Source: Microgenomates group bacterium
Lineage (GTDB): Bacteria > Patescibacteriota > Microgenomatia > PFEM01 > JBNASD01
Length of the DNA: 64,000 nt
Direction: 5' to 3'
Assembly (NCBI GenBank): GCA_049720225.1
Contig: JBNASD010000001.1
Location: forward strand, 228,733 to 292,732
Under the pieces are notes generated by a model. It saw only the letters and a program-made list of their open reading frames with translations. It did not search any database and had not been told where the DNA came from. Both the position numbers and the translations under genes were made by a program. Below are positions 18,178 through 64,000 of this stretch, in pieces (within the stretch, counting starts at the first letter, position 1; each line of letters starts with the position of its first letter).

Positions 18178-18192
18178 TTTTTTAATTATAAA

Positions 18193-24836: not shown

Positions 24837-25579
24837 TATTTAATTATTCCATTGTAAATTTTACTACTTTTTACTAACCATTTTCTCGCTTGATCTCCAA
24901 CTTTTTTAGCACTTTGACCATGATGATGTAAAATTTTTACCGTAGGAAGATAATAAATTTTCAATCCTGCCTTTTTAACTCGCCGGCAATAATCTAAATC
25001 TTCAAAATACATAAAATACCTCTCGTCAAATAAACCTATTTTTTTAATTGTTTTTCTAGAAATCAACATCACTGCTCCGGTTACTGCATCCACTTCTAGC
25101 GGTTTTTCCCCTAAAGGCGTATATTTTTCATATGCTCCTTTTTCTCCTAACCAAAATTCTTTAAACGCTCTCCATAAAGAAGGAAAATGATAAACAGAAG
25201 ATTGAATTGAACCATCAGGATTAATTAATTTCGCTCCAATTACTCCAACATCAGGATGAGATTTTGCAAAGCTTAAAAGATTTTTTAAAGAACCGGGTTT
25301 AACTTTAGTATCAGGATTTAAAAGGAGAATATAATCTCCCCTTGCCTTCTTAATTCCTTGATTTACCGCTTTCGCAAATCCTAAATTTTTTTTATTTTCA
25401 ATAACCCTTAACTCTTTAACGCCTAACTTTTTAACTATCTTAACCGAATTATCAGTTGAAGCATTATCAACAATAATAATTTCGTAACTCAATTCATTTT
25501 TATTTTTTAAAATTGATTCAATACATTCTTTAAGCAGTTTTCCAACATTGAAACTAACAATAATTATTGATAAATCCAT
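24764..25579 (-). CDS. Family 2 glycosyltransferase.
   Basis: LSIIIVSFNVGKLLKECIESI...EIIIVDNASTDNSV, LLLNPDT and a DxD-like FEDLDY. Confidence 0.85.
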   Translation of the reverse strand: MDLSIIIVSFNVGKLLKECIESILKNKNELSYEIIIVDNASTDNSVKIVKKLGVKELRVIENKKNLGFAKAVNQGIKKARGDYILLLNPDTKVKPGSLKNLLSFAKSHPDVGVIGAKLINPDGSIQSSVYHFPSLWRAFKEFWLGEKGAYEKYTPLGEKPLEVDAVTGAVMLISRKTIKKIGLFDERYFMYFEDLDYCRRVKKAGLKIYYLPTVKILHHHGQSAKKVGDQARKWLVKSSKIYNGIIKYWLLTFIIWSGQKWRKILKKIKMK

Positions 25580-25586
25580 GGTTTAA

Positions 25587-26456
25587 TTAATTAAAATAAT
25601 TAAAAATTTCTTCATCGCTAACTTTTTTTTCTTTTAACTCCTTAATTCGGCGAGAAAAAATTAAATAAGATTTTTTAACTGCCATTAAAAATGGACACCA
25701 ATATCCTGGTTTAGTTAATAACTTCATTCCCAACCAAAACTTATGCTCAAAAATCATTTTGGGTGAAGTAATATTTTTCCAAATAAATAAGAGACGATTT
25801 CTTTCGGCAATTAAAGAAACATACTTTTTAGAAAATCGACTAATTGTTCCTTCATGTTTATGATAAACCACTGACCGAGGGTCCCAAATAACTTTATACC
25901 CCCTTTTCCATGCCCGATAGGATAAGTCAACATCTTCCCAATAAAAAGGATGATATAGGTTATCCATTCCTCCTAATTTTTCCCAAATATCTTTCCTAAA
26001 AGCGCCACTTCCTCCTGAAGCCCAAAAAGAAATATGAGGTTTTTGAGTTTTTCCTCCCGGTTGATGTTCTATAAATCCTTTCTGCCAAATACCTCTTACC
26101 CAACTCCATTGAGGTTCTCCTAAAGAAACCGCAAAAACTTTTGAATCAGCAAAATCTTCTTCAAGGGGTTTTAAAAAATCTTTTTCTGGAATTACATCGT
26201 TATTTAACAAAATTACAATCTCTCCCCTTGCTTCTTTTACTCCTCGATTAACTGAATAAACAAATCCCAAATTTTTTTCATTTTTAATAATCTTTAATTT
26301 TTTAATTTTTAAATTTTCAATTATCTTAAGCGAATTATCAGTAGATCCATCATCTACAATAATTATTTCATCTGAATTCGCTTTTAGTACATAGGATAGA
26401 TTTTCCCTTAATAGCTTTTCTCCATTCCAATTAGGAATTACAATTGAAAATTTCAT
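25587..26456 (-). CDS. Family 2 glycosyltransferase.
   Basis: FSIVIPNWNGEKLLRENL...IIIVDDGSTDNS and ILLNNDV. Confidence 0.85.
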   Translation of the reverse strand: MKFSIVIPNWNGEKLLRENLSYVLKANSDEIIIVDDGSTDNSLKIIENLKIKKLKIIKNEKNLGFVYSVNRGVKEARGEIVILLNNDVIPEKDFLKPLEEDFADSKVFAVSLGEPQWSWVRGIWQKGFIEHQPGGKTQKPHISFWASGGSGAFRKDIWEKLGGMDNLYHPFYWEDVDLSYRAWKRGYKVIWDPRSVVYHKHEGTISRFSKKYVSLIAERNRLLFIWKNITSPKMIFEHKFWLGMKLLTKPGYWCPFLMAVKKSYLIFSRRIKELKEKKVSDEEIFNYFN

Positions 26457-39906: not shown

Positions 39907-41394
39907 TTATTTTCTAAATATCGAATAAATATTTTTAATCTCTTTTAAGAAAGTCTCTCTTAATGTTAAAAAAATCAATCCGAAATAAAATAAACATCCA
40001 ATTATAGTTAAAATTAATATTCCCCATATTGTTTTTCCTACATAAAAACTTAAAAGATAAACTAATATTCCCATTAATAATGAAGCAAAAAATGGTTTAT
40101 TAATACTTTTCCAAAAACTAAACTCTATTTCTTTTTTAACTATCAAAATCGCTATTAAAGAACTAAAAGATACTAAAGCGGAAGCCAATGCTATTCCATT
40201 ATATCCAAATTTAATTCCCAGGGCAGGATAAAAAATCCAGGTGAGAACTGTCCACATAACCATTAAATTAAATACCTTTTTGATTTTCCCTACCGCTGCT
40301 AAAAAATTAGTTAATGGTGTAGTTACAGAAGCCCATGCGCTGTTTAAAGAAAAAAATCCTAATGCAAACAAACCTATTTCCCATTTTTGATAACGAGGAA
40401 TTAAATAAACTAAAGGCTTAGATAAAATTACCAATCCAGTTAAAACGGGAAAAACTAATAAAGAAACATAAAATAGAGTTTTTTCTATCATTTTTTTTAG
40501 TTCTGCTTTATTTTCCTGAACACGGGAATACGCAGGAAAAGTCACCCTCATTACCGGCTCCATAAAAAATCGTAGGGGAACTTGCGACCATTTTTGTGCC
40601 CACCCTAAAATTCCTACTCCCTCGGTACCGATTATTTTCCATAAAAATACATTCATTAATCTATCTTTAATTAATGCTAATAAACTGTTCCCTTGATAAG
40701 GGATTCCAAATTTTAAAAGCCTACCTAATGACTCCCAATCAAAAGCAATTCCAATTTTCCAAGGAAAAAGAATATAAATTAAAATCACTCCGAAAATCCC
40801 CCTCAATAAAACTGCCCACACATAACTTAAAACACCAAATCCTTTCCATGCCAAAAATCCTGAAACTAAATAAAAAGTTAAAGTCTCCACAATTTCTACT
40901 AAAACCAAAAATTCGAATTTTAATTGCCTTTCTAATAAAACTGAAGGAATTGTCTTTAATGAAGCAAGAAAAAATCCTATTGTCAAAGCCCACAAAAGCC
41001 AAACGCCTTGTGGGGAAATATGATAAAAATTTTTTAGCCACGGAGTAAAAATAAATATTAAACTTACTAAAGTAATGACTAATATTTGTTGAAGAGTAAA
41101 CGTGCTTCTGATTTCTTTTAAGGTTGGTTTTTCTTTCTTTTGAATTAAAGAAGCCGCTAAACCAATATCAGAAAAATAACCTAAAATCCCTACTAACTCA
41201 GAAATAGCAAAAAACAAGCCAATTTCTGATTGATTTAAAAAAACAGTTAAAATAAAAAAACCAAGAAAAGAAACTAATTGAAGAATACCTGCTCTTCCTA
41301 CTAAAGTTACTATCCCTTTAATTGTTCTTTCTTTAAGAGTATCTAAATCGATTTCTGGAGTATAGCTTAATTCTTCAGGGTTGATTTCTTTCAT
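39907..41394 (-). CDS. Wzx/MOP-superfamily lipid-linked oligosaccharide flippase.
   Basis: It is 495 aa with about 14 TM helices. The N-terminal region TIKGIVTLVGRAGILQLVSFLGFFILTVFLNQSEIGLFFAISELVG and its topology are typical of Polysacc_synt/Wzx proteins. Confidence 0.6.
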   Translation of the reverse strand: MKEINPEELSYTPEIDLDTLKERTIKGIVTLVGRAGILQLVSFLGFFILTVFLNQSEIGLFFAISELVGILGYFSDIGLAASLIQKKEKPTLKEIRSTFTLQQILVITLVSLIFIFTPWLKNFYHISPQGVWLLWALTIGFFLASLKTIPSVLLERQLKFEFLVLVEIVETLTFYLVSGFLAWKGFGVLSYVWAVLLRGIFGVILIYILFPWKIGIAFDWESLGRLLKFGIPYQGNSLLALIKDRLMNVFLWKIIGTEGVGILGWAQKWSQVPLRFFMEPVMRVTFPAYSRVQENKAELKKMIEKTLFYVSLLVFPVLTGLVILSKPLVYLIPRYQKWEIGLFALGFFSLNSAWASVTTPLTNFLAAVGKIKKVFNLMVMWTVLTWIFYPALGIKFGYNGIALASALVSFSSLIAILIVKKEIEFSFWKSINKPFFASLLMGILVYLLSFYVGKTIWGILILTIIGCLFYFGLIFLTLRETFLKEIKNIYSIFRK

Positions 41395-43073: not shown

Positions 43074-44185
43074 CTTAAAATAAACTTTTTTAAATTATAA
43101 CAAAGAAGAATATACAATGGAGGTAGCACTGGCAAAAGATAACGAGGATAAGGAACTCCCATCGAAAACATCACTAATAAAGAAAATGGCCAAAGAATTA
43201 ACAAAAAAAGCTTCAATTTTCTTTTTAAAATTGTTTCAAAAAAAGAAAGTAAACTCAATATAAAACTTAAAGCCCACCAAGGACGCCAGGAAACCACATT
43301 AATTATTTCTCCCTTATCCCACCAAGTTTTCCACTTTCCCAAAAGAAGAATTCTTAAAATCTCTCCCTTTGGATAATTTTCTACTTGAACTCGCGCGAAA
43401 TGACGAATCCAAAAATGAAGATATTTAAAATCCCCAAAATTATGACCCTTTAAAAAATAACCAATGTAAACTCCTAGATAAAAAATAACAAATACTGGCA
43501 AAAATCCTAAAAACCAAAAAATATCTTTTCTTTTTTCAATTACCAAAAGTAAAAAAAGATAAAAAATAAACACTCCAATTAAAGCAAATCCCACTAAATA
43601 CATTTTAGTAGTGCTTACCATTCCTAAAAAAATTACACTTAAAAGATAAAATAATTTATTCTCTTTTCCTTTTAAAAGAGAAAAAAAGGCTAAAGCAATA
43701 AATAAAGAAAATGGTAAATCTAACATGCTGGTTGTTAAGTTTTCTCTAAAAAGAGAATCAAAATTTATAAGAAATACAGGTATTATCGCTAAAAGGTTAT
43801 CTTTAAGGATTTTTTTAGATAAAAGAAAAATTGTTACCAAAAAAAGAAAACCAAAGATTGGAGAAATCATTACAGGATTATTAAAAATTAAAATTGACAA
43901 ACCAATTAAATATTTTCCCAATGGAGGAACTTCAGGATTAATTTTTGTGGGATCATCTCCTTTAATTTGACGCCAACCAGCATAAGCATAAAGTTCAGCA
44001 TCGCCCATTTTTTCTTTTGCTTCCCATCCTTTAACCCATTGAGAATTTAAATAACGTTGCTCCCAATAAAGATAATCATAAGAAGAAAGAAAAACTTCTT
44101 TATGAATTATTATTTCTCTTAAAAAAATAATAATTGTTAACCCTACCAATAAATAAAAAATTACTTTTTTCATTTTATTTTTCAT
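43061..44185 (-). CDS. PMT-like GT-C membrane protein (short form).
   Basis: The first loop GDAELYAYAGWRQIKGDDPTKINPEVPPLGKYLIGLSI has the PMT-family acidic motif followed by an HPPLgK-like motif (VPPLGKYLI). Confidence 0.5.
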   Translation of the reverse strand: MKNKMKKVIFYLLVGLTIIIFLREIIIHKEVFLSSYDYLYWEQRYLNSQWVKGWEAKEKMGDAELYAYAGWRQIKGDDPTKINPEVPPLGKYLIGLSILIFNNPVMISPIFGFLFLVTIFLLSKKILKDNLLAIIPVFLINFDSLFRENLTTSMLDLPFSLFIALAFFSLLKGKENKLFYLLSVIFLGMVSTTKMYLVGFALIGVFIFYLFLLLVIEKRKDIFWFLGFLPVFVIFYLGVYIGYFLKGHNFGDFKYLHFWIRHFARVQVENYPKGEILRILLLGKWKTWWDKGEIINVVSWRPWWALSFILSLLSFFETILKRKLKLFLLILWPFSLLVMFSMGVPYPRYLLPVLPPLYILLCYNLKKFILRWKN

Positions 44186-45699
44186 TTTAGACGATAAAAA
44201 AGAAAGTAATCTTGACTTCCTTCTGGGCTTACTGGTTTAGGGATTTTAAAAATCAATTCTAATTCTTTACCCTCTTTATCATTAACTCCTAATCGAGATT
44301 GATTACCAACCAAAAAAGTAGGAGTTTTGTTTAAAAAAGCCTCTTTTAACGGTTGCGGAATTTCTTTAAAATCTAATCCTACCCCAATAATTTTAATTCT
44401 TGGTTCTTTATCAAAATAAATTTGTAATCCATCAGGTAATGTACCCCAAAAACCTTCGGTTCCTACCACTATTTCTTTTTCTTTTTTTAAAACATCCTTA
44501 AGATAATCTTTTACTTCTTTTATTCCCCATCCCGAAGTCCAATCTGAAAGATAACCCCGCCTCATTTCCGTGGTAAGAGGAGCTTTTGCCGGAGAAGTTA
44601 AAATAAAAAAATCGTATTTTAACGCAGGAAAGAAAATAAGAAGAACCAAAATTATTTTTATAAAACCCAATCTCTTAAAAAAACCTAAAATTCTCTCAAG
44701 AAAAAATCCTCCAAAAATAATTAAAGGAAAAATAGTAAAAAGAAGATAACGAGAGTTAAAAACTTTAGCGATAAATGATTGAATAATTAAAGGCAATAAA
44801 CACCAACTTCCTAAAACTAACGTTTCTTTAGGTTTTTTTATCATTCCCCAAAAAAAACCCAAAATACTTAAAGATAAAATTGGCCAAGTAAATAAATTAG
44901 GAAACCAATCTGTAATATCTTTAAGATGAACTAATAAAGGATCATGAGGATGAAGTAATATTTCTTTAAAACTAAAAATATAATCCTTGTTTCTTAAGTT
45001 AATCATATAAAAACTAGGAGAAAGACGTAAAAGATTGTAAATCCCCACTCCAATTCCCACAAATATCATTAATAAAAATCCCATTCTAAGAAAAATTTTA
45101 AAATTAGCCTTCTCAACCAAAATTCCTACAATAAATAAAAGAAAAACAAAAAAAAGCGCCGGTGATTTAGTCAAAAGAGATAATCCTAAAACAAATCCTC
45201 CTATAATCGCCCATTTTAATTTTAAAGTTTTAACCACTAAAATCCCAAAAATTAAAACCCAAATTCCCAAAGCCATTAGCAAACTATCAACTAATGCCAT
45301 TCGATCGAAAAATAAAGTGTAAGGTAAAACAATATAAATTAAGCTAGCAAAAAAAGCACTTCTTTTAGAATTAAAAATAAGCAAACTAAGAAAAAAAACT
45401 CCTATTAAACTTATTAATCCACTAAAAACAGAAACCATTCTTCCCCCAAATAACGGATCAGGAAATATTTTCAAAAATGGCACCATTAACCACATAAACA
45501 ATGGTTGCTTACCATCAGAAAGAGAAATGAATTTTAGTTCAGGAACTGATTTTATTATTTGTGCCCAACGAATATAAATTGCTTCATCGCAAAAAACAGG
45601 CAGTAAGCTAAGGTTAAAAAGGCGAGTAAATAGAAAAAGTACGATTATTATCAAAAATAATATTTTCTCATTCAAACTTAAAAAATAGTGTTTTTTCAT
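44182..45699 (-). CDS. GT39/ArnT-like GT-C membrane glycosyltransferase.
   Basis: PVFCDEAIYIRWAQII provides the DE motif after TM1. There are about 12 TM helices and a C-terminal periplasmic domain. Confidence 0.7.
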   Translation of the reverse strand: MKKHYFLSLNEKILFLIIIVLFLFTRLFNLSLLPVFCDEAIYIRWAQIIKSVPELKFISLSDGKQPLFMWLMVPFLKIFPDPLFGGRMVSVFSGLISLIGVFFLSLLIFNSKRSAFFASLIYIVLPYTLFFDRMALVDSLLMALGIWVLIFGILVVKTLKLKWAIIGGFVLGLSLLTKSPALFFVFLLFIVGILVEKANFKIFLRMGFLLMIFVGIGVGIYNLLRLSPSFYMINLRNKDYIFSFKEILLHPHDPLLVHLKDITDWFPNLFTWPILSLSILGFFWGMIKKPKETLVLGSWCLLPLIIQSFIAKVFNSRYLLFTIFPLIIFGGFFLERILGFFKRLGFIKIILVLLIFFPALKYDFFILTSPAKAPLTTEMRRGYLSDWTSGWGIKEVKDYLKDVLKKEKEIVVGTEGFWGTLPDGLQIYFDKEPRIKIIGVGLDFKEIPQPLKEAFLNKTPTFLVGNQSRLGVNDKEGKELELIFKIPKPVSPEGSQDYFLFYRLK

Positions 45700-47186
45700 A
45701 AGTGTTCTAGTTTATAAATTTTTATTCCTAAATGTTCCCACTCTTGAGTAATTTTTGCCATTCCAAAACCAGCAATTTCCCAAAGCGGATGACCAACAGG
45801 TTGGCAGTTTTTTTCTTCGCAAATTACAAAAAGTTGATCGGTTACTGTTTTTCTTTCTGGATCAACGTGAGGCGGTTTAATTATCCCTACTGGTTTTTTC
45901 CAGACTTCTAAAAAATAAAAATAAGGAAAATAAGTATTATTTGAAGAAATCAAAGCCAAATTAAACGGTTTCCCTTCGCTTTTCTCTAAAATAAACTTAG
46001 CAATTTCTTGAGTTTGATAAAGTTGACGATTGGGAGTTTGTTTTAAAGGACTAGCTTTTATATTTACCCAAATAAGAGAAAAAAATATTAAACTAGATAA
46101 TATCCACCCTATTTTATTTATCTCTTTTAATTTTTCAAGAATTAAGCCAATAATTAAAAATGGTGCAGGAAACATAAAAACTAAATAATAACTATGAATC
46201 GTCCCTCTGAAAAACCCAAAAAGAAAAACTCCTCCTAAAAACCAAAGAAAAAGAAAGATGTAATTTTTGTTTTTTTGAGTAATTAATTTTAAAAATAAAA
46301 AAATAAATAAAAAAATTAATATTTTAAGCAAGATATCATTTTTTGCTACCACTAAATCATTAAAACTTCTTATAAACACATCTTTTACTATTATCCAAAA
46401 ATTTTTTTCCATTCCTACTTTTTCTCCGGAAGTTAAAAACCAATAAAGATTTTTTAAATTAACAAAATTATGACGAAATTCAAAAGCTAAAAAGGGTGAC
46501 CACCCCAAAACAAATCCTCCCAAAAGATAAAAATAAGAAATAATTTTTTTTCTTTGGGGCATAAAAAACAAAAAATAACTAACCACAATTGCAATTAAAA
46601 ATACGCAAATATAATGAAGTTGAAGGCAAATCCCTAATAAAAACCCTACTATTCCTAAACAGTAAATTTTTTTCTTTTCTTCTTCTAATTTAAGAAGATA
46701 AATACTTAACAAAGCAAAAAATGGTACAACGTTAGGATTCCAAGAAGAGCGAGAATGAATAATTACTAAGGGAGAAATAGCATATAAAAAGCTAGCGATT
46801 AATCCAACAAAGGAACTAAAAAATTTTTTTCCCGTTAAATAAACTAAAAAAACGGTAGCTACCCCAAACAACGCCACCATTATTGCTGGTCCTACTGGAT
46901 TTAAATTAAAAATCCATAAAAATGGTAACATCAGATAGTAATAAATTGGTCCTAAATGAAAGGGAGCAACACTGGCTATTGGTCCTAATAAGGTAAATTT
47001 ATGATCAACGATCATTCTTTTTACAATCAGAACATCTCTTCCTTCATCACCTAAAAAAATCATATAATCAGAAATTCGATAAAATCTCAAAAAAGAGGCT
47101 AAAAGAAGAATTAAAATCAAAAAAATCGTTTCAATTTTATTTTTTTTTAAAGAAGAAAACCACTTCATTAGTTCAAAGTATAGCAT
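45696..47186 (-). CDS. GT-C-like membrane protein, paralogue of 15846..17414. The track start at 47198 is TTG; ATG candidates lie at 47186 and 47168.
   Basis: MIFLGDEGRDVLIVKRMIVDHKFTLLGPIASVAPFHLGPIYYYLMLPFL is collinear with the first loop of 15846..17414. Confidence 0.5.
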   Translation of the reverse strand: MLYFELMKWFSSLKKNKIETIFLILILLLASFLRFYRISDYMIFLGDEGRDVLIVKRMIVDHKFTLLGPIASVAPFHLGPIYYYLMLPFLWIFNLNPVGPAIMVALFGVATVFLVYLTGKKFFSSFVGLIASFLYAISPLVIIHSRSSWNPNVVPFFALLSIYLLKLEEEKKKIYCLGIVGFLLGICLQLHYICVFLIAIVVSYFLFFMPQRKKIISYFYLLGGFVLGWSPFLAFEFRHNFVNLKNLYWFLTSGEKVGMEKNFWIIVKDVFIRSFNDLVVAKNDILLKILIFLFIFLFLKLITQKNKNYIFLFLWFLGGVFLFGFFRGTIHSYYLVFMFPAPFLIIGLILEKLKEINKIGWILSSLIFFSLIWVNIKASPLKQTPNRQLYQTQEIAKFILEKSEGKPFNLALISSNNTYFPYFYFLEVWKKPVGIIKPPHVDPERKTVTDQLFVICEEKNCQPVGHPLWEIAGFGMAKITQEWEHLGIKIYKLEHL

Positions 47187-47206
47187 AAATAAATTCAATT
47201 ATGCTA
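47181..47206. promoter_or_regulatory. Perfect 8-bp inverted repeat TAGCATAA-N10-TTATGCTA in the divergent control region between the GT-C gene (minus) and the PIG-V-like gene (plus). Candidate operator.
   Basis: tagcataaataaattcaattatgcta reads directly. It lies 15 nt upstream of the 47221 ATG and overlaps the possible 5' end of the minus-strand gene. Confidence 0.35.
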
Positions 47207-49778: not shown

Positions 49779-50966
49779 TTAACCTATCCTTTCTTGAATC
49801 CTTTTTAAAAAGGGAACTTTCCATGTTTTCCAGATAAAAATATTATACATTGAATAATTATAAGGAATAACAAAGAATCCGATCGCAATTACTAAATAAA
49901 TCTGCCGCCATTGATCGCCAAAAATTTTCGCTAAAATTCCCACTACTAACCATTGTAATATTACTGCCCCTAATGAAGTCAAGTTGAATTGAAAAAATTT
50001 CCAAATAATTCGCTTAAAACCAGTAATTCTTTTTTCTGAAAATGTCCACAAATTATTTAAGGTAAAATTAGAAATAATTGCTAATTCTGCACCTAATCCC
50101 GCCGCTGGTCCGGGAGATAAACCCAATCGATAAAAAAGTTCCAAACCTAAAGCATTAATTATATACCCAATAAAACCCACTACCGCAAATTTTAAAAAAC
50201 GAATTGTTGTCGGATCATTTAAGCGTAATTTTATTACTCCCAAAAATGTATTTATCACCTCTTTAAAAGTAATCTTGCTTTCTCCTTTTTCTCGTAATTT
50301 AAACTTTAAAGGAATTTCTATTATTTTAGCTCCGTTTTTAACAATCTGATAAAGAATTTGCGTCTTATAAAAGAATCCATTTCCAACCTGACTAAAATCA
50401 ACTTTATCTAAAACCCCTTTCACGCGCGTTAATTTTAACCCTGTGGAAACATCTTTTACTTTATTTATTTGAGGAAAAAATAAGACAAAACGACTAAATA
50501 ATCCCCCTCCAATAGTTAAAAGTTTTCGATACCAACTCCATTCTTTGGGAATTGAACCGCCCTTTACAAAGCGAGAACCAATTACATAATCATATCCTTG
50601 ATCAAATTTTTCTACTAAATCAATAATATAGCGTGGATCATGTTGAAAATCTGCGTCAAATTCAATTACCGCCGCCGCCCCCATTTTTTCCATGGCATAT
50701 TTCATTCCTCTTTTATAAGCCGCTCCTAATCCTTGTTTTTTCCCTAAAGAAAGGTGAATATTGGAATATTTTTTCATTTTTTCTTTCACTACATCGGCAG
50801 TCCCATCTGGAGAATTATCATCAACTACTAAAATTTCCATCTGGTGATTTTTAATCTGAGGAAAAATTTCTTCTTCTAAAACATCAATCATTTTTTGAAT
50901 ATTTTCTTTCTCGTTGTAAGTGGGAATAATTACAATAATCTTCATTTTTGTACCCTTTCTCGCCAA
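49779..50966 (-). CDS. GT2 polyprenyl-phosphate mannosyl/glycosyl-transferase with a C-terminal GtrA-like 4-TM domain (Ppm1/Dpm1-like).
   Basis: IIVIIPTYNEKENI...EILVVDDNSPDGTADVV, EFDADFQHDP, VKDVSTGLKL, and a C-terminal FLKFAVVGFIGYIINALGLELFYRL... (GtrA-like). Confidence 0.8.
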   Translation of the reverse strand: MARKGTKMKIIVIIPTYNEKENIQKMIDVLEEEIFPQIKNHQMEILVVDDNSPDGTADVVKEKMKKYSNIHLSLGKKQGLGAAYKRGMKYAMEKMGAAAVIEFDADFQHDPRYIIDLVEKFDQGYDYVIGSRFVKGGSIPKEWSWYRKLLTIGGGLFSRFVLFFPQINKVKDVSTGLKLTRVKGVLDKVDFSQVGNGFFYKTQILYQIVKNGAKIIEIPLKFKLREKGESKITFKEVINTFLGVIKLRLNDPTTIRFLKFAVVGFIGYIINALGLELFYRLGLSPGPAAGLGAELAIISNFTLNNLWTFSEKRITGFKRIIWKFFQFNLTSLGAVILQWLVVGILAKIFGDQWRQIYLVIAIGFFVIPYNYSMYNIFIWKTWKVPFLKRIQERIG

Positions 50967-55723: not shown

Positions 55724-56214
55724 CAAGTGTGTTTGTCAGCCACAGAAAAAGCACCGTAAGATTCAGGTTTTGTTTTAGCGATAAAACCATTTCCTACTAC
55801 CATTCCTACCACCTCTTTAATCATCTCTCGTGTTGGCCCAACATCCCCTACATCAATATGAATTTCTAATTTATATCTTTCTCCGTTTAATCTTTTAGTT
55901 AAATCAGGAACTAATTTCTCTGCCAATTGAATTGATAAAAGAGTTTCGGTATAAATTTTATCCCGTAAACTGGCGATTTTTTCAATTTTATTTTTCTGCC
56001 AGAAATATCGTCCCCCTTTATTTTTTCGGTGAATCACCACTGCGGTTACAAAATCAACCGGTTTATTAAAGCTTAGTTTTCCTGATTTAGAATCAGTACC
56101 AATGATTAATTTATAAAAATAATCAGGTTCTTCCCGCATAAAAGCCACTAAATCATCTACCATTTCCTCAATGGTCATTTTTCCCTTGGAAGGACTGATA
56201 AAAAATTTTTTCAT
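55723..56214 (-). CDS. YkuK/DUF458-like predicted RNase-H-fold protein. The start is probably MKKFFISPSKGK at 56214; the track start at 56289 would overlap rtcB head-to-head.
   Basis: KLIIGTDSKSGK...VDFVTAVVIHRKNKGGRYFW...IHIDVGDVGPTREMIKEVVGMVVGNGFIAKTKPESYGAFSVADKHT matches the conserved blocks of the YkuK family (GTDS...vtvvviH.k.kGG...e.h.D.g....S........G......G......KP.a.aa..AD+h). Confidence 0.5.
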   Translation of the reverse strand: MKKFFISPSKGKMTIEEMVDDLVAFMREEPDYFYKLIIGTDSKSGKLSFNKPVDFVTAVVIHRKNKGGRYFWQKNKIEKIASLRDKIYTETLLSIQLAEKLVPDLTKRLNGERYKLEIHIDVGDVGPTREMIKEVVGMVVGNGFIAKTKPESYGAFSVADKHT

Positions 56215-56260
56215 CTTAAGCTTATATTTTAGCACAATTTTGCTAAAATATTTATTAATT

Positions 56261-57670
56261 ATGGAAATAAAACTCAAAAAAGTAGGCATTCATTGCTGGG
56301 AAATTCCCCAACAAAAGGGAATGAAGGTAAAAGCGGTTATTTATGCCAAAAAAGAGCTTTTATCACAAATTTATCGCGATCAATCTCTAAATCAACTAAT
56401 TGATGCCGCTTCTTTGCCTAAAGTAATTTCTCCCGTTATTGCTATGCCTGACGTTCATGAAGGATTTGGTCTTCCTATTGGAGGAGTAATGGCTACTGAT
56501 GGACTAGTTTCTGCTGGAGCAGTAGGAATGGATATTAATTGCGGGGTAAGACTTCTTTTTAGCCAATTAATCTATGATCCTCAAGTTTTTTCTCCAGCAT
56601 TTTTAAATCTTTTAATCAAAAAAATTGAAAAAAAAGTTCCTTTGGGATTAGGAGGAAAACACCGTTCTCCTTTAACCATTTCTTTTAAAGAAGTGGTAGA
56701 AAAAGGAGTAAAAGCACTCTTAAAAGACAAAATTGCCAACGAAGACGATCTTCAGGCTATTGAGGAAAATGGTTGTTTAGAAGGAGCGCTTTTAGAAAAT
56801 CTTTCCCCTCAAGCAATTAAAAGAGCAGAAAAAGAATTAGGAACATTAGGTTCAGGAAATCATTTTATTGAAATTCAAAGAATTACCCAGATTTACGATG
56901 AAAACTTAGCCAAAAAATGGGGGCTTTTTGAAAATCAAATTTGTGTAATGGTTCACACCGGTTCTCGTGCTTTAGGTCATCAAACCTGTATTGATTATAC
57001 TAACAAATTTTTTAAAGAACAAAAAAATTATGGAATTACTTCTCCTAATAAAAATTTTTCTTCTTTACCCGCAGATTCTCCTTTAGGAAAGGCTTATTTA
57101 TCGGCAATGGCAGGGTGTGTTAATTTTGCTTTTGCTAATCGCCAATTAATTACTTTTTTTATTCGTCAGGTTTTTCAAGAAGTATTTTTAAAGCCAGAGG
57201 CTAAGCTCTCTCTTCTTTATGACGTTGCTCACAATATCGCCAAATGGGAAATCCACCAAGGAAAACGAGTTTTAGTTCACCGTAAAGGTGCTACCCGAGC
57301 TTTGCCCACCAATCACCCTCAAAATCCTCCAAAATATCTTTCTACTGGTCATCCGGCAATTGTTCCCGGAAGTATGGGAACTTCTTCTTATATTATGGTT
57401 GGTCTTCCTCCTGCTGAAAAAACTTTTTATTCCATCAATCATGGAGCGGGAAGAGTAATGAGCCGAACAGAAGCAATTAATACTATTAAAAAACAAGATT
57501 TTGAAGAAAAAATGGGAAAAATTGTTTATAATCTACCTTTTTTCAAAATTGCCGATGAAGCTCCTCAAGCTTATAAAGACATTGATTTGGTCGTAGAAAC
57601 TTTAGTTGAGGCAGGATTAACCAAAAAAGTTGCTCAACTTAAACCACTGGCAGTCATTAAAGGAGTCTAA
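56261..57670 (+). CDS. rtcB: RtcB RNA 3'-phosphate ligase (tRNA-splicing ligase family). The start is at the internal MEIKLKK at 56261.
   Basis: MPDVHEGFGLPIGGVMA, MDINCGVRL, GSGNHFIEIQ, HTGSRALGHQ, AIVPGSMGTSSYIM and NHGAGRVMSR are the metal-binding and GMP-His motifs of RtcB. Confidence 0.9.
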   Translation: MEIKLKKVGIHCWEIPQQKGMKVKAVIYAKKELLSQIYRDQSLNQLIDAASLPKVISPVIAMPDVHEGFGLPIGGVMATDGLVSAGAVGMDINCGVRLLFSQLIYDPQVFSPAFLNLLIKKIEKKVPLGLGGKHRSPLTISFKEVVEKGVKALLKDKIANEDDLQAIEENGCLEGALLENLSPQAIKRAEKELGTLGSGNHFIEIQRITQIYDENLAKKWGLFENQICVMVHTGSRALGHQTCIDYTNKFFKEQKNYGITSPNKNFSSLPADSPLGKAYLSAMAGCVNFAFANRQLITFFIRQVFQEVFLKPEAKLSLLYDVAHNIAKWEIHQGKRVLVHRKGATRALPTNHPQNPPKYLSTGHPAIVPGSMGTSSYIMVGLPPAEKTFYSINHGAGRVMSRTEAINTIKKQDFEEKMGKIVYNLPFFKIADEAPQAYKDIDLVVETLVEAGLTKKVAQLKPLAVIKGV

Positions 57671-57924
57671 CGAAGTAAAAGAAAAATTACCAGACTACAA
57701 GATAAACCCGCCACTAATAAATATTCCAATATCACCCTAAAATAAAGTTCTTTTTTTAAGGCATGATAAATTATTCCCCATAAAACATAAATACTTCCTA
57801 AAATAATGGTAATCCATACTTGAACTTGACGATTAAAATTAAAAAGCCAATAAAACCAAAAACCAATTGCCAAAATTGTAATTAAGATTAAATAAGGTTT
57901 TATTTCTTTTATTTCAAATTTCAT
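57667..57924 (-). CDS. Small membrane protein of 85 aa with two or three TM helices; hypothetical.
   Basis: ILITILAIGFWFYWLF and IILGSIYVLWGIIYHAL are hydrophobic helices. It overlaps its neighbours by 4 nt at each end, which suggests it is a real, translationally coupled gene. Confidence 0.4.
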   Translation of the reverse strand: MKFEIKEIKPYLILITILAIGFWFYWLFNFNRQVQVWITIILGSIYVLWGIIYHALKKELYFRVILEYLLVAGLSCSLVIFLLLR

Positions 57925-58913
57925 AATATTGCTCCTGGTGTGGTAAAAATAATTGCTAATAATAAAGTAGCAATGAAAAGCAAATGAGCTAAATTTTTTC
58001 CTGAAAGTCTTACCACTTTATTTTGGGCAACTAAAATGCCATCGATAATTAAGGCACCTAAAATTATTCCTAATAAAAATAAAGCAATTGTTTTAGTAAA
58101 CAAAAAGGGAGAAAAAAGAGGGGGAGAAGGAACTTCATTTCCTCCTCGGGCTAAAACTACTGATTGATAAGGAACTTTTTCCTCTAATGGTTTAGTTTCT
58201 TCTGGGGGTAACTGTTCGGAAGGAAGTGTTTCTTCTGGCGATTTCACTTCTGGTTTAGTCTCTTGTTTAATTTCTGTTTTAGTTTTCTGCTCTTGTGTTT
58301 GATTTTTTACTACTAATGAAGGTTTCTTCTCTACCACTGGAGCAGGTGGAGGTGTTCCAAACACTTGAACCACTAAGGTGGTCTCTATCCCGTTTAGAGT
58401 ACCATTTACTACCGCTACTCCTATCTCTTTGAAATTAGGGTTAACAATATTATCCCGATGAGTGGGTGAATTCATCCATGCTTCCACAACTGAGGAACTA
58501 TCCATGAAATCCCGGGCCAAATTTTCTCCGGCATAAATATAACGATAACCGACCTCTTTAAAAAAAGACCAAGGATCTCTTCCCGAAGGAGAAACATGCG
58601 CCCAATAATTGAAAGCAAACATATCGGCTGCTTTTCGTTGAGCCACTTCATTTAATAAAGGATTGTTTACCAGGGGATTAAGTCCTAATTCTGCTCTTTT
58701 TTGATTTGTAAGCTGAATAATTTGTTCGGGAGTAATATTGGATGCATAGCCTAAAACAGAAGGAGAAGTTAAACTAAAAAAATTTAAAAAAAATTGCCCG
58801 GTTAAAAAGAGGGCAACAATTATTGATAAAGAAGCGGGGTGAAGAATTTTTGCTTTATGATTATTACCAGAATGGGGAATAAATAAGTCTTTCAACCACT
58901 CCAAAAGTTTCAT
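57921..58913 (-). CDS. CAP / SCP / PR-1-like domain protein with an N-terminal TM anchor, a Pro/Glu/Lys/Thr-rich linker and a C-terminal TM helix.
   Basis: NEVAQRKAADMFAFNYWAHVSPSGRDPWSFFKEVGYRYIYAGENLARDF...SSSVVEAWMNSPTHRDNIVNPNFKEIGVAVV carries the CAP-domain signature (GENLA, HxxN). The linker reads PPPAPVVEKKPSLVVKNQTQEQKTKTEIKQETKPEVKSPEETLPSEQLPPEETKPLEEK. Confidence 0.65.
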   Translation of the reverse strand: MKLLEWLKDLFIPHSGNNHKAKILHPASLSIIVALFLTGQFFLNFFSLTSPSVLGYASNITPEQIIQLTNQKRAELGLNPLVNNPLLNEVAQRKAADMFAFNYWAHVSPSGRDPWSFFKEVGYRYIYAGENLARDFMDSSSVVEAWMNSPTHRDNIVNPNFKEIGVAVVNGTLNGIETTLVVQVFGTPPPAPVVEKKPSLVVKNQTQEQKTKTEIKQETKPEVKSPEETLPSEQLPPEETKPLEEKVPYQSVVLARGGNEVPSPPLFSPFLFTKTIALFLLGIILGALIIDGILVAQNKVVRLSGKNLAHLLFIATLLLAIIFTTPGAIL

Positions 58914-58958: not shown

Positions 58959-61900
58959 TTATGAAGAACGACGACGAGAAAGAAGAAAGAATGTCCCTCC
59001 TAAAATTATTAAAATTATCCCTCCGCCTAAAAGCAAAATTTTCTTATTTTTAGTTACTTTATTAATAATTGATTCTTCCGTTGTTTTCTCTTCTAAAGAA
59101 GCTTTCTCTTCTCCTGGAGAAGTAGCTTCTTCTCCTAAAATTTCTCCCTTTTTCTCCTCTTTAGGTAAAATTTTTACTTCTTCTACTTTTGAAGTTTCCG
59201 AAGGAGTAGGAGTTACTTCTATATAATAGGTTGATCCCCCATCTCCTACTAAACTTGAAGCATTTCCCGCTTTATCAATAGCTCTTAAGGCATAATAATA
59301 TTCTTTATTGGGAATTAAACAACAATCAACAAAATCCATTTCTTGATCAGGCGAACCCCCTCGTTGACCAACCAAAGTTGAAGAATCGGCCGTAAAATTT
59401 CTCACTTCCGAACGATAAACTAAAACCTTTTCAAAATCGCTATTGGAAGGATTTCTCCAATAAAGTTTATATTCGGTTGAGCTTAATCTTTCTTTACGAT
59501 AATCCCGTGGGGCATCAGGAGAAGAAAAATCAATTATTACTTCTTCAATATTGCTCTCCACTCCATTTCCAATTACTTTAAAATAATATTTTCCTTCTCC
59601 GCTAAAATATTCACTTTTGGTTTGAAAGTAACCTGATGGTTCATTTTTGGTAATATCAAACTGCTTCCATCCCTCTCCCTCTTTACGCATCCATCCCTGA
59701 ACGTTGTAGCTGGGAGTTTCGCTGATGTCTAAAACGGTGTAATAAACTTTAAATTCATATTTATTAATTCTTTCTGGTAAATCAGTAATACTTACTTTAA
59801 CTGCCGTCTGAGCATTTTGAGTAACCGTAAATAATATACCCAATCCCAAAATTAAAACTTTAATTATCTTTCCAAATTTAATAAACTTCCTTGTCTTCTC
59901 CCAATTCCTAATTATTAAACCAGTAATAATCATCAATAAAGCCAAAATTAAATGAGAGGTGGGTGAACCAGTTGCCGCTCCCAAAACTTGTCCTTCTGTA
60001 GCCGCTCCCAAAACTGTCCCCCCAAAAATCGGTGAAACTGTTGCGCTATAAGTTGTTCCTGTTCCTATTTTTACCAAAGAAGTGGCAATATTGCTTTCTG
60101 TTCTTATCCCTCCGGTAGGTCGATTATAACCATAAGCATAAGCCTGATTTTCAAAACTTCCTGTTTCCAATCCGCTATCTGTTTTTACCTGGTAAGTAAT
60201 TTCTATACTGGTATTCCCCGCTAAATTTCCTATTGTCCAAGTCAAAACTTGTCCAGAAATACTTGGCTCAACACTAACTCCTCCTACCTTTCCACTCCCC
60301 ACCACATAACTAAATCCATAAGGCAAAACATCCACTACTTTTACTCCATAAGCGGTGTTAGGAGCGGTATTGGTAACGGTAATTTTATAATTTACTGTGG
60401 TTCCTGGTCCAATACTTCCACTGGTATCATTTGTTTTACTAATTCCTAAAATAACTGGCTGAAGTTTATTAAGAAAATTAACAGTTAAAGACGCTCCCGA
60501 AGCGATTGTAAGTCCTCCAGAAACCCGATGTGAATCCTCATTAAGATAACTATCAGTTGGTGTATAACCAGCTAAATCCGTATCTATCAAATCTTCAACT
60601 GCTCGATAAGTACCCGGCCCTAAATTGTCAAAAAGATAACAACCAGTTTCGTCTGTCTCTACCCAATCACCAACATCTTCCCAATTAGTTATTTCTTCTG
60701 AAGATTGCTTTTGTAATTTTATATTTACCCCGGCAATTCCTGGTTCATTTTCATCTTTTACTCCATCCCCATTTAAATCGTCATATTTACAAACCTTAAT
60801 CTCTCCTAATTTGAAATTAGCTATATTAACAGCGGTTATTTCTCCGGGAACAACACTAACATTTTGACAAACACTGGTTGTTGTTTGCCAACCTGGTTTT
60901 AAAATTTCTTTAACTGAATAATTACCAGGTACCAAATTGTTAAATTCAAGATCTCCTTTACTATCAGTTAAACCACTGGAAATCGACGCTTCTTCTAAAC
61001 AATCAAAACCACTAAAAAGTTTTATTTCCCAATTTTCCAAACCTGTTTCTTGTCCATCAATTACTCCATTACCATTAACATCTTCAAATTTATGAACTAA
61101 AATTCCTCCATAACGAATATTTCCAAAACTTTCACCCGTTCGACTTTGTCCTGATCGAGTAATACTTACAATCCGACATCTTGGTCCTTCTTTATTTTTA
61201 TTAGGCGAATAGTTATTAGGATTCCCCACGGGTCCTGTTTGTTTCCAACCAGCTTGAAGAACTTCACACACGCGATAAGTACCTAAGGAAAGATTTTCAA
61301 ATCGATATTGACCAACATTACCAGTATGACCGGTAGTTTTTTCTCCTAAAATATTCCACCCATTATCATAAAGCCTAATTGTCCAACCATTTAAATAAGG
61401 TTCATTGGCGTCTCTTCCTCCATCTTGATTTAAATCCTCATATTTTCTTCCAGAAATTTTTCCTAATTGAAAATTACCAAAATTAACATTTTCAACAACA
61501 GTTCCTGATTGAATTGTAATATCTGGAGGATTGGCGCTTGTCTGGATCCAACCTACTTCTTGTTCTTCCAAAATTCGATAAATTCCTGCGGTAAGTCCAC
61601 TAAATTCATAATTTCCATTTAAATCAGTTGTAGTGATATTATCTACTACTCCATCCGCTCCTTTATCAAGTTTAATTATCCACCCACTTAATCCAGGTTC
61701 ATTATCATCTTTTATTCCGTCTCCATCCAAATCTTCAAATTTCTGTCCAGAAATTTTTCCTAATTGAAAATTAAGAATTTTAAGACTAAAGCCTGAGCCG
61801 GAAACCATAGGAACTGATATAGGATACCACCCGGGACGGGTATGAGAAGTTCTTATCCACCCTACCCTCTCTTCTTCGGAAAGAAGATAGTTTCCGGGCG

Positions 61901-64000
61901 CAAGATCTCCAAAAGTATAACAACCATTATCTCCTGTCACTCCAGAAAGTACTTGTCCTGTCGGTGTTTGCAAATACATTGTCCAACCAGGAATAAATGG
62001 TTCTCCTCCATAACTACCATTTCCATTTAAATCATTAACTTTGCAAATTTCAATATAACCCTCTAAATAATTACCAAAAACTACATTTACCTGTTGACCG
62101 GCATTAAGATTAACATTTTGACAGATTCCTCCAGTAGTATTAATCCAGTCTCGACCATCTGGCCATTTGGTAATAACCTCCAAAACAGAATATTGACCGG
62201 CAAGCAAATTAGAAAAAAGTTTATTTCCGCTACTATTAGTCAATCCTTGATCTATAGGATTACCCTGACAATTAGAACCGGAAAATAACTTCATTTCCCA
62301 CCCCGGTATAGCAAGATCACCTGAATCTTTTACTCCATTTCCATTATTATCATTAAATTTATGAACTAAAATTGAACCATATTTACTATTAGTAAAGGTA
62401 CAACTAACTGTTTCTCCGGGATCAATATCTATAAAAACTTGATTATTTGGTAAATCATAAGTTGTTTGGTTATCAGGATCGACACAGGTAATATCTGTCA
62501 ACTTCCAACCACTAACTTCTTTTTCCACAATTTGCCAAACATCAGCAAAAATTGTCTTTATTTCATAAGGAGTGTTTTGATCGGTTAAGTCTTCAACAGT
62601 TTTAACATAGTTTCCTCCCCGATAAAATTCAAAATCAAAGGTTTGGGAGTCACCAGAAGGATTAGTCGTTTTATCGATAATTAATTTTCCGTATTTTATA
62701 TTTTGAAAATAGCAAGTCACTTCATCATTACTATTTAGCGGTAAAGTAATTTGATGGGTTTTACTATTAAAGGAGCCTACTGGATTTTGATTTTTATCAA
62801 GACAATAAGGCGGATTAGTACTCTCAGGTGAATACCAGCCCTCTAAAAACATTTCTTTGATTTTATAGGTATCAGGCGGTAAGTTAATAAATCCAGTATC
62901 CCCTACACCTCCACTAGTAGTAGCTGAAGGAGTAGCTACTGTTATATCTTGGCTATTTTTAATTTGAAAGTTAAAAGTTTCGTCGCCTCCAAAGGCATTT
63001 TTTACAATCTTAATTTTGCCTTGCTTGGTGTTAGTAAAGGTGCAAGCTATATTTTCATTTTTATCTAACTCAAATGTTACTGTCCGTTTATTGAGATCAA
63101 TAAATACAGGTTGATTGCAAACTAAATTAGTTAAATCCCACCCTGTCGGCAAATTTTTTTCTTCAATAATATATACTCCAGTCTCATAGGCTTTACTAAA
63201 TGGGACGTCTTGATCTTTTAATGAAATATCTTCATTTACCCCTGTCTCACTACTGGAAATATTAAAAATAAATTCAGTCGTATCGCCGGGAGGATTAGTA
63301 ACTTTATCTATTGCAATTGTCCCTTTATCTCGAATTAAAGTACAATTTTGAGAACAAGTATAACCAGATGGTACTCCATCGGTTCCATCACACTCTTCAT
63401 AACCAATATCCTTTTTTCCATCACCACAATAACCGTCAGTTAAAGTAATAATTTGGCAGTTATCACTACAATAAGTACAAGAGGCTGGCTGACCCCCAGT
63501 TCCATAAGGAGGCGTACAAACTATTCCGTTTTTATCGCCATAATCACATTGTTCGCCTAAATCTTGATCAAGATTACCGTCTCCACAATACCCGCAATTT
63601 TCTACAGTAATATAATTTAATTTTTTTTCCGTATCTGAATTACCAGAACTATCTGTAACGGTTAAGGAAACATCAAAAGTACCAATAGTATTATATTGAT
63701 GGGTTGGATTTTTTAAAGTTGAACTTCCTCCGTCTCCAAAATTCCAATTATAAGAATAAGGGCTATTACCCCCTGTTGTTAAATCTGTAAATTGAACAGT
63801 ATCGCCTTTACAAATAGTTAAGGGGTTAGCGGAAAAATTAGCTATCAGCGGAGTAGTAACGATATAATCCAAACCAAAGTTACACCAAGATTGACCGGGC
63901 GGATTACACTTTTCATTTGATCCGAAAGAAGCACAATTATTGGTATTTGTATCCCAAGAAACTTTTATATTTTTTATTGCTAGACTTGTTCCACAGGACC
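58959..64000 (-). CDS. Giant multi-domain cell-surface adhesin-like protein, 5'-truncated by the window edge (at least 1,680 aa).
   Basis: The frame stays open upstream of the track's TTG start at 63872 to position 64000. The domains run in order as follows. A PKD domain is recognised by NWNFGDGGSSTLKNPTHQYNTIGTFDVSLTVTD. Two Myxococcus-type Cys-rich repeats follow (CGYCGDGNLDQDLGEQCDYGD and YCGDGKKDIGYEECDGTDG). Three Ig/prealbumin-like repeats each end in CTFTN..G. Six SdrD-B/Cna-B-like repeats carry K[FY][EN]DLNG[DN]G..D..EPG..GW.I.L. A DUF11-like domain reads GTTVNYKITVTNTAPNTAYGVKVVDVLPYGF. A TM hairpin (HLILALLMIITGLII then RNWEKTRKFIKFGK then IIKVLILGLGILF) lies mid-protein. An FN3-like domain follows (YRKERLSSTEYKLYWRNPS...EYYYALRAIDKAGNAS). 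The C-terminal TM reads ILLLGGGIILIILGGTFFLL with an RRR tail. Confidence 0.8.
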   Translation of the reverse strand, partial: SCGTSLAIKNIKVSWDTNTNNCASFGSNEKCNPPGQSWCNFGLDYIVTTPLIANFSANPLTICKGDTVQFTDLTTGGNSPYSYNWNFGDGGSSTLKNPTHQYNTIGTFDVSLTVTDSSGNSDTEKKLNYITVENCGYCGDGNLDQDLGEQCDYGDKNGIVCTPPYGTGGQPASCTYCSDNCQIITLTDGYCGDGKKDIGYEECDGTDGVPSGYTCSQNCTLIRDKGTIAIDKVTNPPGDTTEFIFNISSSETGVNEDISLKDQDVPFSKAYETGVYIIEEKNLPTGWDLTNLVCNQPVFIDLNKRTVTFELDKNENIACTFTNTKQGKIKIVKNAFGGDETFNFQIKNSQDITVATPSATTSGGVGDTGFINLPPDTYKIKEMFLEGWYSPESTNPPYCLDKNQNPVGSFNSKTHQITLPLNSNDEVTCYFQNIKYGKLIIDKTTNPSGDSQTFDFEFYRGGNYVKTVEDLTDQNTPYEIKTIFADVWQIVEKEVSGWKLTDITCVDPDNQTTYDLPNNQVFIDIDPGETVSCTFTNSKYGSILVHKFNDNNGNGVKDSGDLAIPGWEMKLFSGSNCQGNPIDQGLTNSSGNKLFSNLLAGQYSVLEVITKWPDGRDWINTTGGICQNVNLNAGQQVNVVFGNYLEGYIEICKVNDLNGNGSYGGEPFIPGWTMYLQTPTGQVLSGVTGDNGCYTFGDLAPGNYLLSEEERVGWIRTSHTRPGWYPISVPMVSGSGFSLKILNFQLGKISGQKFEDLDGDGIKDDNEPGLSGWIIKLDKGADGVVDNITTTDLNGNYEFSGLTAGIYRILEEQEVGWIQTSANPPDITIQSGTVVENVNFGNFQLGKISGRKYEDLNQDGGRDANEPYLNGWTIRLYDNGWNILGEKTTGHTGNVGQYRFENLSLGTYRVCEVLQAGWKQTGPVGNPNNYSPNKNKEGPRCRIVSITRSGQSRTGESFGNIRYGGILVHKFEDVNGNGVIDGQETGLENWEIKLFSGFDCLEEASISSGLTDSKGDLEFNNLVPGNYSVKEILKPGWQTTTSVCQNVSVVPGEITAVNIANFKLGEIKVCKYDDLNGDGVKDENEPGIAGVNIKLQKQSSEEITNWEDVGDWVETDETGCYLFDNLGPGTYRAVEDLIDTDLAGYTPTDSYLNEDSHRVSGGLTIASGASLTVNFLNKLQPVILGISKTNDTSGSIGPGTTVNYKITVTNTAPNTAYGVKVVDVLPYGFSYVVGSGKVGGVSVEPSISGQVLTWTIGNLAGNTSIEITYQVKTDSGLETGSFENQAYAYGYNRPTGGIRTESNIATSLVKIGTGTTYSATVSPIFGGTVLGAATEGQVLGAATGSPTSHLILALLMIITGLIIRNWEKTRKFIKFGKIIKVLILGLGILFTVTQNAQTAVKVSITDLPERINKYEFKVYYTVLDISETPSYNVQGWMRKEGEGWKQFDITKNEPSGYFQTKSEYFSGEGKYYFKVIGNGVESNIEEVIIDFSSPDAPRDYRKERLSSTEYKLYWRNPSNSDFEKVLVYRSEVRNFTADSSTLVGQRGGSPDQEMDFVDCCLIPNKEYYYALRAIDKAGNASSLVGDGGSTYYIEVTPTPSETSKVEEVKILPKEEKKGEILGEEATSPGEEKASLEEKTTEESIINKVTKNKKILLLGGGIILIILGGTFFLLSRRRSS

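Follow-up and report, generated by a model that had tools for sequence, protein, structure and literature searches.

A giant Microgenomates surface-protein gene that joins a probable adhesin to a tandem-FN3 partner at a putative junction of sorting signal and signal peptide

How can a bacterial surface protein carry a sortase-type sorting signal, an element defined as C-terminal in reviews (PMC5118464, PMC4155245), and continue for 308 more residues after its basic tail? The question is raised by a giant gene at one end of the window, as we call the whole stretch of 64,000 nucleotides (nt) analysed here, which comes from a Microgenomates bacterium of the candidate phyla radiation (CPR). Our answer, to which we assign a probability of roughly 0.6, is that a single open reading frame (ORF) gives rise to a sortase-processed, wall-linked fibrillar adhesin and to a membrane-anchored protein with two FN3 domains in tandem. 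The joining of adhesin and partner through a sorting-signal/signal-peptide junction is real and recurs widely among relatives.

Minus-strand translation from 63998 to 58959 gave 1,679 sense codons and a single terminal stop, with the frame open up to the window edge; the listed ORF of 1,637 amino acids (aa) is the same frame counted from its first TTG. A database protein (P0044, NCBI MGB9911261.1) from a Microgenomates metagenome-assembled genome, encoded on a contig of 466,595 bp, is 2,042 aa long and 100% identical across the query, for which the first 1,340 residues were used. Because this identical protein has 2,042 aa, the window lacks the first 363 residues (5' 1,089 nt of the gene, beyond the edge) and the ORF is uninterrupted upstream. 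According to the initial annotation, the frame had no stop between 58962 and the window edge and the protein exceeded 1,637 aa, as translation and the database protein now bear out; the upstream interruption that it named as a possible refutation is not seen in this intact protein, from which, rather than from the contig, the N-terminus and signal sequence could be recovered. The start, MRLIFKLSVKRIKTLQKFFSLLTVISLIF...PILA/EEP, is an N-terminal Sec signal peptide as judged by inspection and orthologue alignment, and not by a dedicated predictor.

The putative junction of sorting signal and signal peptide

The window protein has three hydrophobic, putative transmembrane (TM) segments, at aa 1345-1363 (TM1), 1372-1396 (TM2) and 1654-1672 (TM3). 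Around TM1, aa 1339-1371 have the layout of a sorting signal, a hydrophobic helix preceded by a motif and followed by a basic tail, the motif being LGAATG where orthologues carry LPATG, LPSTG or LPAAG (Table 1). The last 390 residues have homologues that are, for the most part, separate proteins of ~300 aa with an initial Met and a signal peptide of classical type. In the two-gene order, a sortase gene is followed by an adhesin gene ending in ...GEVLGAATELPATG, a TM segment, a basic tail and a stop, and this by the ~300-aa partner, read from Met and its signal peptide; the partner gene overlaps the adhesin 3' end by 8 nt in loci L003 and L007, by 14 nt in L006 and by 17 nt in L008. Locus L003 thus has a sortase, a 1,647-aa adhesin and a 296-aa partner, and its adhesin ends as ...GEVLGAATELPATG-NDTKVLIMLLTMLALGASLKIV-...EEKERKNA-stop, a textbook sorting signal. 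Since both elements, which lie in separate genes in L003-type loci, share one frame in the window, TM1 is best read as the adhesin's stop-transfer anchor and TM2 as the signal peptide of the partner, the latter on the basis of alignment to stand-alone homologues beginning at Met, a three-frame check and a survey of cleavage sites. The basic loop between TM1 and TM2 and the RRRSS tail agree with the positive-inside rule and would give an out-in-out-in topology. The TM hairpin, FN3 and C-terminal TM that had initially been assigned to the adhesin are therefore present as segments, but not as part of the adhesin: they belong to a second protein, which brings a signal peptide of its own and is joined on after the sortase-type sorting signal.

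A filter-free profile search with the partner across 1.84 billion cluster representatives returned 834 proteins at E<=1e-30, and the top 150 of these were classified as 56 stand-alone partners, 69 C-terminal fusions and 25 unrelated multi-FN3 proteins. About half of the relatives have the partner as a gene of its own, overlapping the stop codon of the adhesin. In the 69 fused forms, the host proteins range from 399 to 3,052 aa and the module comes directly after a junction of motif, TM segment and basic loop, the motif being LPxTG in 33, of LGAATG type in 30 and LPxAG in six. Four fused relatives (P0047, P0064, P0141 and P0007) each have a sortase gene adjacent. An unfused protein of L007 with a CLIPPER domain (formerly DUF11, as renamed in 10.1101/2025.04.25.650565) ends in ...GEVLGAATGSKT, a TM segment and LRKKND-stop, with a sortase in the same locus, and LGAATG hence also sits where a terminal sorting motif would. 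The fusion in the window is inherited and not a sequencing error, because its NWEK..F junction is common to the nearest orthologues, P0196 and P0219, and the three-frame check found neither an ATG nor an alternative open frame at the junction. Moreover, that the two genes have repeatedly fused and split makes a strong case, through guilt by association, for a joint function of the uncharacterized FN3 protein and the adhesin.

In a sub-clade with short adhesins (L001, 5489-9771; L007, 2105-6888), genes for a Peptidase_M73 (camelysin-like) protein, a signal-peptidase-like S24 protein and a large LTD-domain protein precede those for the CLIPPER protein and the FN3 partner, a gene set that resembles TasA/SipW-type fibre loci.

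An AlphaFold2 (AF2) model of the partner, built with 45 sequences, consists of two beta-sandwiches (predicted local distance difference test, pLDDT, > 90), ~57 disordered residues (pLDDT < 50) and a terminal helix, and Foldseek matched it to tandem FN3 pairs (contactin, integrin beta4, neogenin) with probability 1.0 and E 1e-8. The FN3 fold proposed at the outset is therefore supported by model and structural search, but the count of one is not, the model having two domains. By sequence, the FN3 profile PF00041 stayed below its cut-off (16.1 bits against 25; E 0.013), and profile and homologue searches neither placed the partner in a Pfam family nor gave it a functional annotation. Across 45 homologues, its linker motif is conserved as LPxE...GQVLGxE. 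After the internal hydrophobic region, a strict [AVS]-x-A signal-peptidase site is present in 60 of the 69 fused forms and in 49 of the 56 stand-alone forms, and this equal frequency argues that the internal signal peptide is still cleaved.

A motif of the form G-x-[VI]-L-G-x-x-[ST] recurs just outside the membrane, twice before TM1 (aa 1327-1344) and once in the partner linker (aa 1616-1624). The product of the neighbouring CAP-domain gene carries PSVLGYAS (aa 51-58) right after its N-terminal TM segment, and a 964-aa CLIPPER protein in locus L009 has two VLG motifs and then a TM segment at its end. Enrichment of GxVLG across the window was uninformative, as TM segments match it too.

Linked sortases and predicted processing

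A sortase gene lies within the adhesin locus in all eight distinct related loci examined, and directly beside the adhesin in seven of them (the exception is L007). The linked enzymes keep the His, Cys and Arg motifs FAHS, LQTC and KRL, and three of the four that were scanned passed the generic sortase model TIGR01076. One locus, L009, matches the window gene for gene over 45.7-64 kb (adhesin-partner fusion, CAP protein, ~80-aa protein, RtcB on the other strand, RNaseH-like, RmlA-like, dehydratase, TrmD, GT2-GtrA, two GT2 and PMT_2) and has its sortase directly upstream of the adhesin; from this synteny, the sortase gene belonging to the window is predicted to lie just beyond, that is upstream of, the window edge.

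In a Gottesmanbacteria locus (L004), a sortase paralogue upstream of the adhesin (9320-9925) has LQASYPP for LQTCYPP, with the catalytic Cys missing, and behind the adhesin comes another sortase, which is intact. Directly after this adhesin-sortase locus lies a complete type IV pilus set (PilB-like ATPase, PilC, PilM/O and several N_methyl pilins; 17285-25840).

We propose that the giant protein would be a Sec-exported fibrillar surface adhesin of this Microgenomates bacterium, running from a variable Cys-rich distal region through a PKD domain, two Cys-rich repeats and ten immunoglobulin (Ig)-like stalk domains (three SpaA_4, six SdrD_B and one CLIPPER, kinds that often bear internal isopeptide bonds) to the sorting signal. 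Export would be started by the N-terminal signal peptide and stopped by TM1, with the positively charged loop kept in the cytoplasm; TM2, a former signal peptide, would resume it and bring the FN3 module outside, where TM3 would hold it in the membrane. The sortase, encoded by synteny just upstream of the window edge, would then cut between T1343 and G1344 of LGAATG and pass the stalk to the cell wall, and the FN3 protein would probably be freed by signal peptidase, with A1399 and V1400 on either side of the predicted cut. The outcome would be the same two surface proteins as in the two-gene arrangement, in a 1:1 ratio and from one ORF. Topology, both cleavages, wall attachment and a binding role are what we infer from these features; an adhesin role fits the architecture and is plausible, and the host attachment and episymbiotic lifestyle put forward by the initial annotation are hypotheses. 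With 13 Ig-like domains, such a fibril would, by rough estimate, measure about 50 nm. As a tentative extension, Microgenomates might commonly encode such a surface 'polyprotein', with an internal sorting signal and signal peptide, split by signal peptidase and a CPR sortase of an unclassified lineage, in which case LGAATG and LPAAG would be new sortase recognition motifs and the FN3 partner a dedicated co-factor or acceptor.

Several points weigh against processing of this kind. The 64-kb window itself gave no sortase gene when six related sortases served as tblastn queries (no match with E below 0.4). The linked sortases reached none of the curated classes A-F (best NCBIfam scores 49-61 bits against cut-offs of 140-166), and their specificity is therefore not readable from known enzymes; an identity matrix of ten enzymes showed no clear split between those linked to LPxTG and to LGAATG. 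The LGAATG motif lacks the Pro of LPXTG, and it is as a sequence that it is put forward as a candidate sortase substrate. The window protein also belongs to the nine among 69 fused forms in which no strict [AVS]-x-A site occurs (it has NAQTA, with Gln at -3), an atypical site that makes release of its FN3 module uncertain. Finally, AF2 could not model the Cys-rich distal part (pLDDT < 50).

The absent Pro and the atypical signal-peptidase site would both suit an uncleaved three-pass membrane protein, in which LGAATG has decayed and the adhesin is tethered by a hairpin and covalently continuous with the FN3 module, the fusion itself making wall anchoring unnecessary. We consider this unlikely: LGAATG-type motifs show strict conservation across 30 fused cluster representatives, whereas a decaying motif would drift, LGAATG also ends the unfused protein of the sortase-bearing locus L007, and sortase genes remain linked to the LGAATG loci L001, L007 and L009.

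Similarly doubtful is a structural envelope fibre, a spacer or surface coat of Microgenomates rather than a host-specific adhesin, although the family is large and its surroundings are conserved and housekeeping-like in many lineages (TsaE/TsaD, FtsX, TrmD and sugar-nucleotide genes). Hypervariability among orthologues and a lack of homologues mark the distal region, as one would expect for a tip that binds a ligand or acts as an antigen. Architectures with PKD, SdrD_B and CLIPPER domains are, besides, typical of fibrillar adhesins (10.1101/2025.04.25.650565).

A sortase-polymerized pilus subunit, in a CPR counterpart of Gram-positive pilus islands where the FN3 protein would serve as the base or in assembly, would fit those loci in which two sortases occur together with another CLIPPER or SpaA protein (L001, L004, L009), a weak match to an RrgB-type isopeptide domain, and the best sub-threshold NCBIfam sortase class, which is C for three of the four enzymes scanned and D for the fourth. 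All class scores are nevertheless far under the cut-off (about 60 against 160 bits), many loci have a single substrate and a single sortase, and no pilin motif or E-box was seen, though no search was aimed at them. Known pilins are also several times shorter than the proteins of 1,300-2,700 aa found here, and we regard a pilus subunit as highly improbable.

An artefact of assembly or sequencing, such as a single indel fusing the frames in the A-rich overlap where the partner ATG of two-gene loci lies 8-17 nt inside the adhesin 3' end, is rejected with near certainty, given that the window junction has no ATG or alternative open frame in any frame, that it recurs in independent samples (P0196, P0219) and that the 69 fused cluster representatives come from many sources.

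Domains of the probable adhesin and neighbouring genes

Table 1. Features of the giant surface-protein gene and its immediate neighbours (positions in the window; residues numbered from the window edge).
Feature	Position	Strand	Residues	Basis or remark
Giant surface-protein gene, 3' 82%	58959..64000	-		1,679 codons + stop at 58959-58961, of a 2,042-codon gene
End of lineage-specific Cys-rich distal ('tip') region	63840..63998	-	1-53	
PKD domain	63606..63839	-	54-131	PKD_4 E 4e-19 at aa 56-131
Two Cys-rich CGDG-type repeats, no family given	63324..63605	-	132-225	CGDG...C...C pattern
Three SpaA_4 prealbumin-like (CnaB-type) stalk domains	62379..63323	-	226-540	E 3e-9, 7.5e-9, 2.3e-12
Six SdrD_B domains (PF17210)	60459..62378	-	541-1180	E 1.9e-9, 1.5e-6, 1.8e-14, 1.6e-11, 1.7e-10, 6e-13
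One DUF11/CLIPPER (CnaA-like; PF01345) domain	60099..60458	-	1181-1300	E 6e-17
Putative internal sortase-type tripartite sorting signal	59886..60020	-	1327-1371	GTVLGAATEGQVLGAATG, SPTSHLILALLMIITGLII, RNWEKTRK
LGAATG motif (within VLGAATG)	59967-59984	-		Candidate sorting-signal motif before TM1
Putative internal signal peptide of fused partner (TM2)	59802..59885	-	1372-1399	FIKFGKIIKVLILGLGILFTVTQNAQTA; without own start codon
Two tandem FN3 domains of partner	59229..59801	-	1400-1590	AF2 pLDDT > 90, Foldseek
Disordered acidic Ser/Thr/Pro linker with conserved LPKE...GEILGEE motif	59040..59228	-	1591-1653	pLDDT < 50, alignment consensus
C-terminal TM anchor and RRRSS tail	58962..59039	-	1654-1679	
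Membrane-bound CAP-domain protein	57921..58913	-		E 1.3e-18; 45 nt downstream; neighbour conserved by synteny
85-aa membrane protein, overlapping CAP stop codon	57667..57924	-		Conserved neighbour

Outside the window, the N-terminal part of the full-length protein comprises the signal sequence, a Pro/Thr/Glu-rich linker, a conserved Ig-like domain ('TDKADYAPTDT') with homologues in many CPR proteins, and then the Cys-rich distal region. The latter had no Pfam or NCBIfam match, and homologues of this N-terminal part were found for the preceding Ig-like domain only.

Domains were called by Pfam scans of the whole protein and of fifteen overlapping segments. The PKD domain matches that of ColH collagenase in the PDB, and the SdrD_B array matches UafA. 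SdrD_B scores 204 bits over the whole protein; five of its six copies pass the 29.7-bit cut-off alone, the second copy reaching 28.8 bits, and every copy holds a D-x-[ND]-x-[DN]-G loop. The CLIPPER profile scores 62 bits against a cut-off of 24.6. For the isopeptide triad of this domain (Lys-Asn bond and catalytic Asp), no solved CLIPPER structure in the PDB was matched by sequence. In the isopeptide-type stalk, K, E/D and N occupy the expected strand positions as judged by eye. The SdrD_B copies are 32-48% identical to one another and a tandem repeat is absent at the DNA level, from which it follows that the array is old and no artefact of assembly. Profile searches thus back the PKD domain, the three Ig/prealbumin-like, the six SdrD-B and the one DUF11 repeat of the initial annotation, and the domain scans agree with its picture of a secreted surface protein that is very large and has a stalk of the adhesin type. 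Its 'Myxococcus-type' label for the two Cys-rich repeats (TIGR02232/PF13948) had to be dropped, since no Pfam or NCBIfam model matched aa 132-225 even at E<=10; PF13948 is carried by the orthologue P0045.

The CAP-domain neighbour and the glycosylation genes noted earlier were both confirmed. An RtcB RNA ligase gene (56171-57670, plus strand) separates the adhesin-CAP operon from the sugar genes, with a 4-nt overlap with the end of the 85-aa gene, and L009 is arranged alike. A scan for promoters and terminators near the 3' end of the giant gene gave nothing exceeding shuffled expectation. The sugar island holds six paralogous PMT_2 (GT-C, ArnT/PMT-like) membrane glycosyltransferases, four consecutive and two apart (18193-24836 and 44182-47198, both minus strand), near which ORFs of 522 and 560 aa had no Pfam match. 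It also contains a B12-binding radical-SAM enzyme (2292-3821), a Wzx-like polysaccharide flippase (39907-41394) and a GT2-GtrA fusion (49779-50966), all on the minus strand, and sugar-nucleotide enzymes are encoded in the window as well. PMT_2 and other GT-C enzymes glycosylate substrates outside the membrane, and the giant protein has Ser/Thr/Pro-rich linkers, among them aa 45-175 of the full-length protein; its glycosylation is possible. Relatives, too, have sugar genes next to the adhesin, with RtcB, TrmD and an RNaseH-like gene interspersed, which may simply be conserved gene order: with housekeeping genes in between and an order kept across lineages, the adjacency alone is weak evidence for glycosylation.

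Most genes of the window are on the minus strand, and GC skew is strongly negative (-0.04 to -0.33) in 31 of 32 intervals across 1-64000; unusual disparity in strand composition has been described in Microgenomates (PMC7143001). GC content is 25-30% at 10-48 kb and 33-37% at 50-64 kb.

Comparison with known systems

To our knowledge, little is known of how CPR bacteria (Patescibacteria) hold on to other cells apart from type IV pili and the recently described Pam pili, and our literature search found nothing specific on CPR sortase biology, internal sorting signals or the FN3 partner. The locus described here would be a third, widespread Microgenomates surface apparatus, made up of a sortase, a giant stalk adhesin, a tandem-FN3 partner and a CAP protein, and its motif, junction and two predicted cleavage sites are concrete handles for testing.

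With the Sdr/MSCRAMM adhesins of staphylococci (SdrD, SdrC, UafA), the giant protein shares an SdrD_B stalk with EF-hand-like Ca loops, a Sec signal and a putative tripartite sorting signal; it differs in having LGAATG instead of LPXTG, in the internal position of this signal and the residues that follow it, and in belonging to a CPR organism. The MSCRAMM A-domain is absent, as the SdrC equivalog model NF000535 scores 67 bits against a cut-off of 1,700 and only its B-repeat part aligns. Fibrillar adhesins with isopeptide-type stalks, built of adhesion, stalk and sorting parts, likewise combine a stalk of CLIPPER/DUF11, SpaA-like and SdrD_B domains with PKD and sorting domains, whereas the isopeptide bonds here are predicted by eye and the consulted passages of that work do not describe a C-terminal fusion partner (10.1101/2025.04.25.650565). 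As in Gram-positive sortase pili (SpaA, RrgB type), a sortase adjoins large CnaB/CnaA substrates, with two sortases and two substrates in some loci, but the enzymes here do not belong to class C, no pilin motif was identified among the substrates, though no search was aimed at it, and these are far larger than known pilins.

Pam pili of CPR bacteria are assembled by donor-strand exchange with chaperone-like factors, and have in common with the giant protein that they are specific to the CPR, lie outside the cell, consist of Ig-like domains and occur in Microgenomatia (10.64898/2026.03.03.709456). The candidate assignment of the giant protein to the Pam pili was rejected, as the PamR model scored 21.6 bits against a cut-off of 300, over the PKD domain only.

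In viral and eukaryotic membrane polyproteins, stop-transfer and signal sequences alternate, one ORF provides two ectodomains, and membrane-associated peptidases separate them. The likeness to the protein described here would be a functional analogy without homology; here the organism is a bacterium and a sortase transpeptidase would perform the first cut. An internal sorting signal challenges the textbook rule that sortase signals are C-terminal, and if LGAATG is indeed cleaved, it would add a new motif to the sortase repertoire. Altogether, the stalk itself is of the known Sdr and fibrillar-adhesin kind, and what is new is the widespread fusion of adhesin and partner through a junction of sorting signal and signal peptide.

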